A DNA stretch of 64,000 nucleotides, from assembly GCF_054482525.1 (NCBI RefSeq), contig NZ_JBTHVG010000003.1, one strand, 5' to 3'. Positions 33,001-42,000 of this stretch are shown in pieces. Position 1 is the stretch's first letter, and each line of letters begins with the position of its first letter. Source of the stretch: a plasmid. A program made the position numbers.

Positions 33001-36000
33001 CATATCCCTCAACCGGAACTGCATTACCTTGGATATCAATTTTGAATCCTCCAGCTATTACAATTTCGGGTGCGTTATCATTTAAAGTCTCGTCATAGGC
33101 AGCATCAACTACATCGCAAGCAGTAAGAGTAAGTGACGATGCCACAGCAAGACACAATAAAGAAAATCTGTTTTTGAACATATTTGAGACCTTTTATAAA
33201 AATAAAATAACAGGAGAATTGTATCATTAACAGTCTAGTTCTAACGACTACCACTTTTAAGTATGTATTGAGCCAGTTTTATATTCAGGCACACCATATT
33301 GCACTCTAGCTCTTTCATCATTCTTGAAGAACTCTTAATTAAGTATTCTTCAAGTGGGCCAGCATATGCCCCTGATGTCACGATCGTTAGTTGCGTAAGA
33401 GGATGAGTCAAACTCTCAATGCCCTTCAGGATGTCATTCTGGACAGCAGCAATATAAACAGGCGAAGCCGCAATCAAATATTCATCATTCGGGCTGGACT
33501 GCATTAACTGGCTTATAGTTGCGCAACGGTTATGCTTACCTAGTGATTTTGTGATGGCTTTCCACCAGAGATCATGCCTGAATGGTACTTGATGAAATGT
33601 CGCCTCGTAAGAGGGCACCCGATCTCGACTATTTAAAAACCCCATCCCGGCAGAGATTATCCACAACTCCAGATTTCTGGTTGAGTTTAAAATTTCCTTT
33701 GCCGTAGACCAGTGATTACCTGAATACAAGGACAATGCCGGTACCGCCTGATTACTTCTGGCGTCGTCTACAATGTTACTCCAGGCATATGCTGCGTCGT
33801 CCGGGGTTTGTTTTGGATCTATGTCCAATGTCGGCCAGACGTGGCCCTGATGATTCTTGCCCTTTGTACAGGAAGTGATTAAGTGTACTGGGGTCAGTTT
33901 GGATATCGAAAATTATTGTACGTTAAGGTTATTTTTTGACCTGCCTAATTTAGCTGGCCTCAGCCGACGAAACTTACCGGCTGACGGTATCCGGTTGCTT
34001 TTCCATATATAATCGCCTGTCAGATTGATGTGTTCCCAGCCTAGCGGGGACAAATGCGACAGTAGTTGCTCGTTGATCTTCACTCCCTTACGCTTCAGAG
34101 CATCGACAGCTCTTTCCATATAGACGGTATTCCACAGGGATATGGCAGCTGTCAGGAGCGTCAGTCCACTGGCGCGATAGCTCTGATTTTCCGGTTTTCG
34201 GTCCCTGATTTCTCCCAGCCGGTGCATAAATACCGCTCGCGCCAGCGCGTTACGGGCTTCACCTTTATTCAGCCCCGCCTGTACCCGCCGACGCAGTGCA
34301 GGATCGCGGAACCAGTCGAGCATAAACAGAGTTCGTTCAATACGGCCAATTTCTCTCAGTGCTTTGGCCAGCCCGTTTTGCTTGGGGTAGCTGGCAAGCT
34401 TTTTCAGCATCAGGGATGCCGTCACGGTTCCCTGCTTTATCGAGGTTGCCAGACGCAGCACTTCACGCCAGTGAATTTCGATCTCTTTCAGATTCAGGCT
34501 GGTTGTTGATATCAGTGACTGAAGCGCCGGGTACTGGCCTGCTTTCCCTTTGATAAATAGCTTCTTGTCGTGGAGATTCCTGATTCGCGGACAGAACGCA
34601 AATCCCAGCAGATGCATCAGGGCAAAGACATGATCGGTGAAACCCGCTGTATCGGTGTAATGCTCCCTGATTTCCAGGTCGCTTTCGTGGTACAGCAAGC
34701 CATCGAGCACATGGGTTGAATCTCTGACCCGACTGATTATGCAGGTGTAAAACGGGCTGTATTGATCCGAAATATGGGTATAAAACTGACGTCCGGGCTC
34801 CTGCCCGTATTTCGGGTTAACCTGCCCTGCGTAGCGGCCTGATCTGCCTGTTCTGAAATTCTGTCCATCTGATGATGATGTTGTCCCGTCTCCCCAGAAT
34901 GCCGCCAGCGGCCTTTTCCCCTGCGCGTTTACCAGCTCTGCAAGGGCTGCTGAATAGGTTTCGTCGCGGATGTACCATGCCTGAATATCTTCGAGTGATG
35001 ATTTGGTGCTACCGGGGCAGGCTTCCGCCATTTTGGTCAGGCCAAGATTGATGCCATCCGCAAGAATGGTGGTGAGAAGCAGGCGGATATCGGGACGGGT
35101 AATGTCAGTTTTTATATGCGAAAAATGTCGGGTAAACGTCGTCCAGCTGTTTACCTCATCGAGAATTTCCGTGATTTTAGGGCGCGGTAGCATGCTGTAA
35201 ACCAGCTCTGCCAGCGGTGAAACCTGCACCGGAACGCTGTTATCCAGCGGAGAGACTTTTACGCCCCTGTAAGATATTTCCACATCGGGCAGTTCACCAA
35301 GGGCAGCCATGGCATTGACCTCTTCAAGCCTGGACTGAAGCAGGGTCATACGGCTGGTAATGTACTCATGATAATCAGCAGATACGGGAAGTGGCAGCGC
35401 CGGTGTGAGTTTGTCAAAGTCCTTTTCGGGAATGAGGTAATCATCAAAATTTTTGTAGCGGCGTGAACCTTTGACCCAGATGTCCCCGGAACGCAACGCC
35501 CCCTTAAGCTCGCTGAGCGCACAAAATTCATAGTACTGCCGGTCAATACCCGCAGGTGTAATTACCACCTTGCGCCAACTTTCTGGGACAAACTCAAGCG
35601 GCGCGGTGGCCGGAACTTTACGTGACTGCTTCCGGTACATATCCTTGATCACAACCAGCGCATCAGCCAGAGGTTGCGCTGCCGGAGTTGCGATTAACTG
35701 TAAAGCTGACAACATGCGCGGGGCATATTTCCGTAATGTGCTGTATTTCTCGGTAATAATATGCAGCGGGTCAAAATTATTTTTTCTGGCGAGATGGCGT
35801 GTTTCCTCCAGACTGGCGACAAATTCAGGCCATGGGAGTATGTTTTCTATTGCGAGCCATGGATCTCCCCCGGAATCACGGGCATCAGACAGCGCCTGAC
35901 CGACATTGATGTACTGCCTCAGTTTTGACTGGATCAGCTTTCCGGTCTGCTGAAGGCGCTCAGCCTGTGTTCTTTTGGCTTTGCTGAAAAGGCTGTTCAG

Positions 36001-39000: not shown

Positions 39001-42000
39001 TCATTACCAGAAATTACAGGTGTTGCCATGATCCATTTCCTTCAGTTGGTTTGACTCAGTTAAGACGCTATCAGTAACGGATTACCGTACGGATTGATTT
39101 ACCTTCATGCATAAGATCGAAGGCCTCATTGATTTCATCCAGCGTCATCGTGTGGGTAACAAATGGCTCCAGTTCAATTTCACCCTTCATGGCATCTTCT
39201 ACCATGGCCGGAAGTTGCGTACGGCCTTTCACTCCGCCGAAAGCAGAACCTTTCCATACGCGCCCGGTAACGAGCTGGAATGGACGGGTGGATATCTCCT
39301 GCCCGGCGCCGGCCACGCCGATGACAATGGACTGGCCCCAGCCACGGTGAGCACTTTCCAGCGCCGCACGCATAACGTTGACGTTACCGATACATTCAAA
39401 AGTGTGGTCAATGCCCCATTTGTTGATTTCAAGCAGCACATCTTTAATCGGTTTGTCATGGTCGTTCGGGTTGATGCAGTCGGTTGCACCGAACTGACGG
39501 GCAAGTTCGAATTTGGCCGGGTTGGTGTCGATAGCGATAATGCGTCCTGCTTTTGCCTGGCGAGCCCCCTGAACGGCAGCCAGACCGATTGCGCCAAGAC
39601 CAAAAATAGCGACAGAATCTCCAGGCTGTACTTTCGCTGTGTTGTGAACAGCGCCAATCCCGGTAGTCACGCCACAGCCCAGCAGGCAGACGTGTTCATG
39701 GTTTGCCTCCGGATTAATTTTTGCCAGAGAAACCTCGGCCACTACCGTATACTCACTGAAGGTGGAACATCCCATGTAGTGGTAAAGAGGCTGGCCATTG
39801 TAAGAAAAGCGGGTGGTTCCGTCAGGCATCAGTCCTTTTCCCTGAGTTTCGCGAACCGATACACAGAGGTTCGTTTTCCCGGACTGACAGAATTCACACT
39901 CCCCGCATTCGGCGGTGTAAAGCGGAATCACATGGTCTCCCGGCTTCACGCTGGTCACGCCTTCACCGACCTCCACGACGACACCGGCCCCTTCGTGGCC
40001 GAGAACCACCGGGAAAACGCCCTCAGGATCGTTCCCGGAGAGGGTAAAGGCATCTGTGTGGCAGACACCGGTGTGGGTATTTTTAATCAGCACCTCGCCT
40101 TTTTTAGGTGGTGCAACATCAATTTCAACAATCTCCAGGGGCTTCCCTGGTGCAAATGCAACGGCAGCACGTGATTTCATATGTAAATTATCCTCAATGT
40201 GATGGCTTAGCTATTTAAGATAGGCGCGAACCAGTTCAATCGTATCGTCAACGGATTTACTGATTTCATGGCTGTAGCTGTCATTCTGGTCAAAGGTTTC
40301 CCGTATGTGGCTCTCGAGCACCTCTGCCATAAGACCGTTAGCTGCTCCGCGAACGGCAGCTATCTGCTGAAGAATGGAACGGCATTCAGCACCATTTTCC
40401 AGCGCTCTTTCCAGAGCATCAATCTGACCCCGAATACGGCGAACACGGGTAAGGACCTTTTTTTTCTCTTCAGGAGTACTGGGCATTATTTACCTCACCA
40501 TTTTTGATTTTATATACTATAGTGGAGTATATAATTATTATCAATGCATACTCCACTACAGTATAACTAAGAATAAACATAACTACCTTTATTTGCGATA
40601 TAAATCATATATTTATATTATTTTTGGCTGTGATACTGTCGGAAGGAAAGTTACTACAAAAATGATATCTACCGATACGGGATTTGCGGCATAGGCGGTT
40701 CTGTTAAATTTCGCCAGATATTGGCTCATCATTGATGGTCAAAAAATGAGCCTAACGTACAATAATTTTCGATATCCAAACTGACCCCGTACTGAGCGTT
40801 CAGAGAACATTATCTTCCTTACATACCCATAGAACAGCTTTCTAAGAACGGTGGGCTCGCCTGAAAATTACAAATCAGCCCCTTTCACGGCATCATTTTG
40901 ATTCTTCGCGTCTGCCCCCAGTAAGATGACCGGTTTTCTGCATGACAGTGTTATTCCTAACAAACGCAACACAAAACCACGCCAGCCAGAGCAAATTTTT
41001 TCATTTGCTGCGTAAAGCCTATTGTTTTCTCTTTTAAGCTTCGCCCACTCGTTACAGAGGGTAACATCATCAAGCGCTGTTATATGCTTCGCCTCACCTT
41101 CGACGATAACGGTATGGATACCGTATGCTGTAAATCTCATACTATTTTCCAGAACCCAGTTGCGGTATTCGTCGAGTCCACCTTCGGAACCGGTAGCTCT
41201 GCGCCACATTTCAATTTGCTTGTGTGATGGGTCAAGTGTACTTGTCATTGAAGCCTCGTCTCAGCGATAACGCTTGAAATAGCCCGCTTTGGTCATCATG
41301 AAATTAGCCATCTGACTGGCGATTTGATTGTATCTTACTCATAGTGCCCTACCTATAGGTTAAAAAGGGGCATTTTCGCTTTATAGCGTGTTCAGCAGCA
41401 TCAATCCTCCCAAGAAAGGCTGGCTTATTAAGCCGGTCCATCATTTTCTGTATATCTCTCATCAATTTTTATATCCGCCCTGGAGTGCACCGTTCAAGCA
41501 CACCGATTAGGCAGATAGTCACTAGTTAACTCTTTACTAGTGACTAAATTCCATTGATATACGTGACAACGTCACGTCATGAAAGCTTATAAATGCCTAT
41601 TTTTCATACAATGGGATTTAATTAGGAGTAAATCCCATAGGCTTACATAAGGATGACAATTAAAAGCGTTAAATATCAACCAGATAGAATGATTACCCCC
41701 AATTAATGGGCTCATCACATTATTTCACTGGCTGGGGTTATTGCTGGCATATCTGAAAGTGCTAATATGTTAGTCATTAGTAATTAGTAAAGCCTTTACT
41801 AAACGCGTTTCTACGTAAATTCTATAGGTTTTATAGTGTCCTACCTTTGCTCAAATCAAAATGTTCTGACATACCAAAATGGAGTGTAAAATGACTCAAA
41901 ACCAGGGTTCTGAGCCAGTACCGGCGAGCCGGACAGGGCAGCTCATCAGCGCCCGGGATATGGCCATGCAGAAATTCGAAGAAGGGATGCGGTTAATCTC

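Follow-up and report, generated by a model that had tools for sequence, protein, structure and literature searches.

Transposon Tn6901, first described in plasmid Rts1, is a 6.9-kb element that carries tnpA, tnpR, adh, glo, fgh and frmR (PMC6498974), and it has also been reported in pEC27-1 and in pBK31551, where it interrupts Tn4401 (PMC4551976). A preprint on equine faecal bacteria describes a transposon type with the cargo frmR, frmA, gloA and frmB, inverted repeats (IRs) of 47 bp and a relatedness to TnEc1, states that the type was first named Tn6901 and later Tn6399, with the equine copy registered as Tn7489, reports similar structures in 106 Enterobacteriaceae plasmids, Rts1 and R471 among them, and proposes selection by aldehyde biocides (bioRxiv 10.1101/2022.09.12.507718). 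In the present analysis, 64,000 nucleotides of plasmid DNA (contig NZ_JBTHVG010000003.1 of assembly GCF_054482525.1; the window) were examined, and positions 33890-40788 are very probably a copy of this transposon (Tn6901, Tn6399, Tn7489), inserted in an IncHI2 multidrug-resistance plasmid by Tn3-type transposition. The element, its cargo, its wide spread in Enterobacterales plasmids and the biocide hypothesis are all published already and are not a discovery made here; this analysis makes small additions, in that it proves the insertion from the empty site, identifies the disrupted gene and its repeated disruption, and notes a private substitution in the transposase. A first-pass annotation of the window had described a Tn3-family transposon with a formaldehyde-detoxification cargo at this position, and the published names, the disrupted DpdC-like gene and the private substitution were absent from it.

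Genes were called with the curated equivalog cut-offs of NCBIfam, together with Pfam domains and PADLOC defence models, plasmid comparisons were made in PLSDB, and Rts1 (NC_003905.1) and one TnEc1 contig were aligned as references for Tn6901 and for its cargo-less relative, respectively. The Rts1 element (5877-12777) and the window copy agree in their six genes, in the order and orientation of these and in their IRs, the former being 6901 bp long and the latter 6899 bp. They are 99.74% identical over 6901 aligned positions, with 16 substitutions and one 2-bp indel between them, and their FrmR, FrmA and VOC (glyoxalase-like) proteins are identical, whereas the transposase of the window copy has Asn at residue 775 (N775). 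With its 6.9 kb, the six named genes and near-identity to the Rts1 prototype, the element has the defining features of Tn6901. The surroundings of the two copies differ, that of Rts1 being flanked by ATTAA and ATGAA and that of the window lying in an IncHI2 dpdC-like gene between perfect copies of GTACT. Five Klebsiella and Enterobacter plasmids share one identical copy, from which the window copy is only seven bases away; two of the seven alter a protein, giving FrmB T113 and TnpA N775. The FrmB T113 allele is widespread, the exact protein being found on 149 contigs.

TnEc1 has an identical 38-bp IR, shares about 47 bp of each terminus and has a homologous divergent tnpA-res-tnpR core, which in the aligned contig is 82.8% identical in nucleotide sequence to window positions 33923-37684; the NCBI label 'TnEc1 family' is carried by members of the same 90% transposase cluster. 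Passenger genes are absent from TnEc1, where tnpR is followed at its 3' end directly by the IR, whereas here a frm block of about 3.0 kb (~37704-40741) stands between the two, and this block is therefore a passenger placed between tnpR and the right-hand IR (IRR).

The transposon, 6899 bp in length, is bounded by two directly read copies of GTACT, at 33885-33889 on the left and 40789-40793 on the right. Its left-hand IR (IRL; 33890-33927, plus strand, tnpA end) reads GGGGTCAGTTTGGATATCGAAAATTATTGTACGTTAAG, which is the same as the IR of TnEc1 and of the Rts1 Tn6901, and it matches the reverse complement of IRR (40751-40788, minus strand, cargo end) at 37 of 38 positions, the exception being A/G at position 37. 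These coordinates and the single difference had been given in the first-pass annotation and were all correct on re-reading; a possible miscount of the IRs or direct repeats and a possible disruption of the frm genes were also checked, and the IRs and repeats hold and the frm genes are uninterrupted. A scan of the 64-kb window for the 38-mer, with up to 3 mismatches allowed, gives these two places and no other, and 100 shuffled sequences give none. Beyond the 38 bp the two ends still resemble each other, as far as 33941 on the left and from 40737 on the right, giving 52 nt at 94%, in agreement with the 47-bp IRs reported for the group (bioRxiv 10.1101/2022.09.12.507718).

For an empty-site query, both flanks were joined with one GTACT, and the resulting 618 bp were searched in the plasmid collection. 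About 900 plasmid records cover at least 80% of this query, with a single GTACT, and in R478, the IncHI2 archetype, the uninterrupted site is 100% identical to the joined flanks across all 618 bp. The first-pass annotation had read the pentamers as a target duplication and had proposed a comparison with related plasmids for the empty site, and both proposals are borne out: since the joined flanks are exactly the backbone, the novel DNA starts and stops at the IR tips and GTACT was duplicated on insertion, and the identity over 618 bp means that the match between the pentamers is not due to chance. Insertion by transposition with a true 5-bp target duplication is thus proven by the empty site. 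It is scarcely credible that the block came instead by homologous or IS26-mediated recombination, with pentamers that match by coincidence. Rearrangements around the element do happen, as other copies with non-matching flanks attest (see below), and IS26 is abundant in the window, but no IS26 adjoins the element, the novel DNA is bounded precisely by the IR tips, and an uninterrupted backbone results when the flanks are joined through one GTACT.

Comparison with other plasmids shows that the transposon moves to many sites as a whole unit. At least 80% of it is held by 220 PLSDB plasmids, with the top matches ending at the IRs, and among 11 further copies fetched from other plasmids four more perfect duplications were read at four sites (TTATA, AACAT, TGCAC and GAGAT), which with GTACT makes five distinct sites with perfect 5-bp duplications. 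Three of these 11 copies (L004, 25492-32392; L007, 301-7199; L009, 301-7199) have non-matching flanks, as does the Rts1 copy (L012, 5877-12777), which points to recombination between copies, or rearrangement beside them, at a later time. The junction seen in the window was found in no PLSDB plasmid and in no complete RefSeq E. coli genome. This absence, the perfect duplication and the identity of the flanks with the empty site together speak for a recent and lineage-specific insertion, in keeping with the first-pass annotation, which had called the event probably recent.

The DNA around the insertion is IncHI2 backbone, and removal of the element restores a 666-bp coding sequence (CDS) on the minus strand, in which the duplicated GTACT occupies nt 18-22; the R478 counterpart is intact and is the hypothetical protein WP_001447900.1. 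In the joined-flank reconstruction, the 3' part of the gene (nt 18-666) corresponds to 33241-33889 and the 5' part (nt 1-22, with the ATG at 40810) to 40789-40810, both on the minus strand. The restored protein of 221 aa matches the PADLOC model for DpdC (E=4e-59) and Pfam DUF6884; the flanking backbone open reading frames (ORFs) matched no NCBIfam family. The same gene is interrupted, each time independently, in two other IncHI2 plasmids. A transposon variant of 97.4% identity lies at nt 250-254 in pSL131_IncHI2, with the duplication GAGAT, and ISKpn26 lies at nt 598-601 in pFJMB80002_1. Plasmid pSL131_IncHI2 was considered as a carrier of the insertion seen in the window and was rejected, its insertion being independent and 232 bp further into the gene. 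At the comparison loci, the DpdC-like gene is found at 2176-2841 (L002), 3184-3600 and 10502-10755 (L003), and 15530-15598 and 16795-17395 (L004). With three independent hits, the gene could be a hotspot for insertion or a dispensable gene. The G+C content of the target region is 40-45%, compared with 50% for the element.

As the first-pass annotation had it, the transposition module belongs to the Tn3 family. The tnpA gene (33913-36900, minus strand), the 3' end of which falls inside IRL, encodes a Tn3-family DDE transposase of 995 aa that scores 1126.6 bits with NF033527 (cut-off 500). The protein is of the large DDE type (DUF4158 and DDE_Tnp_Tn3) and can be aligned over its whole length with the Tn4430 transposase of known structure, 7QD8 (E=3e-213), and its catalytic triad D678/D750/E881 is intact, in invariant columns aligned to D679, D751 and E881 of Tn4430 (triad as defined in PMC9579193). 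The divergent tnpR gene (37068-37703, plus strand) encodes a serine recombinase/resolvase of 211 aa (Pfam Resolvase PF00239, E=4.6e-20), with the N-terminal serine motif YLRASTEDQ (Ser10) and a C-terminal helix-turn-helix at 169-207; the protein is identical to WP_000470623.1 of other copies, and it scores under the NCBIfam cut-offs for named resolvase families. Tn3 and Tn4430 are like the window element in having 38-bp IRs that begin GGGG and end ACGTTAAG, a DDE transposase of about 1000 aa and a 5-bp target duplication, and the terminal IRs found here follow the family pattern (GGGG...TAAG), with different pentamers beside other copies. Tn3 also has a serine resolvase divergent from tnpA, as here, and its cargo is bla rather than formaldehyde detoxification; Tn4430 uses a tyrosine recombinase.

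In Tn3, res is located between the divergent tnpA and tnpR genes. The corresponding spacer of 167 bp in the window (36901-37067) contains TATCGCAT at 36950, ATGCGATA at both 37019 and 37047, and ATGCAATA at 37033, and all four occurrences of ATGC[A/G]ATA or its complement in the window sit in this spacer, where 0.01 would be expected. The cluster fits resolvase half-sites of a putative res, and the spacer would presumably also hold the promoters of the two genes. In the proposed mechanism, the DDE transposase would bind the 38-bp ends, the target would be cut with a 5-bp stagger and a cointegrate would form, which the serine resolvase TnpR would then resolve at res between tnpA and tnpR; the outcome would be the 5-bp duplication GTACT and an insertion 18 nt into the DpdC-like gene, splitting that gene. 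As a separate observation, made by eye in the Tn4430 alignment, TnpA reads LLCYLK (about residues 52-58, near 36730-36750) where the QLxxLR β-clamp-binding motif (PMC11417375) would stand, and the canonical motif is absent.

The six ORFs of the element (tnpA, tnpR, frmB/fghA, VOC, frmA and frmR) are open, full length and uninterrupted, and to this extent the description 'intact' in the first-pass annotation stands. It does not necessarily extend to activity, since N775 falls at a near-invariant residue of TnpA. Codon 775 (34576-34578) encodes Asn, where Asp stands in 99 of 100 full-length homologues with identities reaching as low as about 54%, and the residue sits within the invariant PRIRDL motif, 25 residues past the second catalytic Asp. 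It aligns with D776 of Tn4430, a residue for which no role is mentioned in the structural paper (PMC9579193). Every other transposon copy examined carries D775, and the cluster of 3944 members to which the N775 protein belongs lists that exact protein from one E. coli plasmid contig (230,346 bp). A rather unlikely alternative is that this copy is structurally complete but unable to transpose itself, D775N inactivating or weakening TnpA, so that the element would be fixed unless a related transposase acted in trans. The conservation of the Asp, with invariant P, R, I, R and L alongside it and with Asp likewise in Tn4430, and the restriction of N775 to a single contig speak for this possibility; against it, the substitution lies outside the intact DDE triad and is conservative in size, and the perfect duplication attests to a past transposition, by the element or by its immediate D775 parent.

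From left to right, the element consists of IRL, tnpA (leftward), the spacer, tnpR (rightward), frmB, the VOC gene, frmA and frmR (all leftward) and IRR. The cargo had been read in the first-pass annotation as frmR-frmA-VOC-frmB without an antibiotic-resistance gene, and the family matches agree. The formaldehyde-responsive repressor gene frmR (40211-40486, minus strand, 91 aa) scores 180.8 bits with NF008464 (cut-off 133), and its product starts MPSTP and has both Pro2 and Cys35, which we take to be the sensing residues. The frmA gene (39071-40180, minus strand) encodes an S-(hydroxymethyl)glutathione dehydrogenase (class III alcohol dehydrogenase) of 369 aa, which scores 741.5 bits with TIGR02818 (cut-off 543.95) and is identical to WP_000842086.1. 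It is followed by the VOC/glyoxalase-like gene (38631-39029, minus strand, 132 aa; Pfam Glyoxalase PF00903, E=1.1e-6), the product of which is annotated as the VOC family protein WP_008813494.1 and matched no NCBIfam family, and by frmB/fghA (37731-38567, minus strand), which encodes an S-formylglutathione hydrolase of 278 aa with a GHSMGG serine motif (TIGR02821, 400.1 bits, cut-off 281.7). The locus thus has the components of a frmRAB operon, namely a FrmR with Pro2 and Cys35, a class III alcohol dehydrogenase FrmA and a FrmB/FghA esterase. According to the predicted pathway, which is assigned from equivalog-level matches and standard biochemistry, FrmA would oxidise S-hydroxymethylglutathione and FrmB/FghA would then hydrolyse S-formylglutathione to formate. 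A hairpin with a 12-bp stem (6 G-C pairs) lies at 38585-38613, in the 63-bp gap between VOC and frmB, and might serve as an attenuator within the operon or as an element for RNA stability.

The DNA upstream of frmR has an inverted repeat of 18 nt (40513-40530 and 40548-40565; 94% complementary), which holds two of the three TACT-N7-AGTA sites in the window, at 40515-40529 and 40549-40563. This is presumably the site architecture of RcnR/FrmR-family repressors. A -35 element, TTGATA, lies between the two sites, and a -10 element, TATAGT, lies within the promoter-proximal one, together giving the best promoter match in the region (10/12). Positions 40513-40565 (minus strand) are accordingly described here as a putative FrmR operator/promoter, through the paired sites of which FrmR would repress its own promoter until formaldehyde modifies the repressor.

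Among described frm loci, the chromosomal frmRAB of E. coli has the same glutathione-dependent pathway with FrmR, FrmA and FrmB, but no VOC gene between frmA and frmB, whereas Aeromonas plasmid pAsaXII has the same four-gene order, frmR-frmA-glo-frmB, including the glyoxalase-like gene (PMC5736529). The pAsaXII cluster has IRs and no transposase, whereas Tn6901 here has its own tnpA. The Aeromonas strain with this cluster had a formaldehyde minimal inhibitory concentration of 0.01%, compared with 0.0025% for non-isogenic controls, a four-fold difference (PMC5736529), and the cargo in the window may confer formaldehyde resistance as well, a phenotype that has been predicted in print for this type of transposon (bioRxiv 10.1101/2022.09.12.507718; PMC4551976). 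Some points have to be set against the reading of the interval as a copy of Tn6901 that arrived, and might move again, by Tn3-type transposition with a formaldehyde-resistance cargo. Resistance is a predicted function of the cargo, and the pAsaXII comparison was made between different strains; the res and operator assignments are predictions from motif clustering; and N775 in the invariant PRIRDL motif makes the present transposition competence uncertain.

Selection by biocides or disinfectants, which the first-pass annotation had suggested for this plasmid and which is already in the literature, is plausible but speculative. Somewhat short of an even chance is given to the alternative that the element owes its spread mainly to hitch-hiking on successful resistance plasmids, or to the detoxification of metabolic or host formaldehyde, with formaldehyde disinfectants not the main driver. 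Enterobacteria already have a chromosomal frmRAB, and full-length copies of the element come from plasmids of humans, swine, chickens, food and wastewater, beside mcr, NDM and other resistance genes. The long-established plasmids Rts1 and R471 already carry the element, and a wild horse without obvious exposure yielded a related copy (bioRxiv 10.1101/2022.09.12.507718). On the other hand, animal husbandry and aquaculture make use of formaldehyde (PMC5736529), farm animals account for many hosts of the listed PLSDB carriers, and the preservation of an intact, regulated four-gene operon at more than 99% identity over many plasmids argues for selection on the cargo.

The first-pass annotation had also placed the element on a resistance plasmid, and the IncHI2 backbone does carry blaCTX-M, aph(3')-Ia and dfrA12 further along the window. 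These lie in a resistance region at 52604-63606, with the CTX-M β-lactamase gene at 59706-60581, aph(3')-Ia at 57733-58548 and dfrA12 at 55937-56434. The region further contains an aadA fragment (54834-55529), the C-terminal half of a second Tn3-family transposase (52604-54193) and four 240-aa ORFs of equal length, the one tested being an IS6-family transposase. Nearer to the insertion, backbone genes at 26948-28987, 42619-43911 and 45761-47230 resemble defence or DNA-modification functions, and these near-insertion genes include a UvrD/GajB-like helicase (PADLOC E=1e-51), a weak LmuB/JetC-like ORF of the SMC type and a cytosine DNA methyltransferase (E=3e-206).

Annotators should label the interval Tn6901 and treat the split backbone gene as one DpdC-like CDS, and the insertion at the GTACT site can be used as a lineage marker for this IncHI2 plasmid. 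We hold it improbable, although worth stating, that the DpdC-like gene is repeatedly targeted, its loss being tolerated or favoured, and that D775N, in addition, marks a functionally important, uncharacterised acidic residue just after the second catalytic Asp of Tn3-family transposases; the identity of the element would be the same in either case. The D775N variant is an inexpensive natural means of testing a conserved transposase residue.

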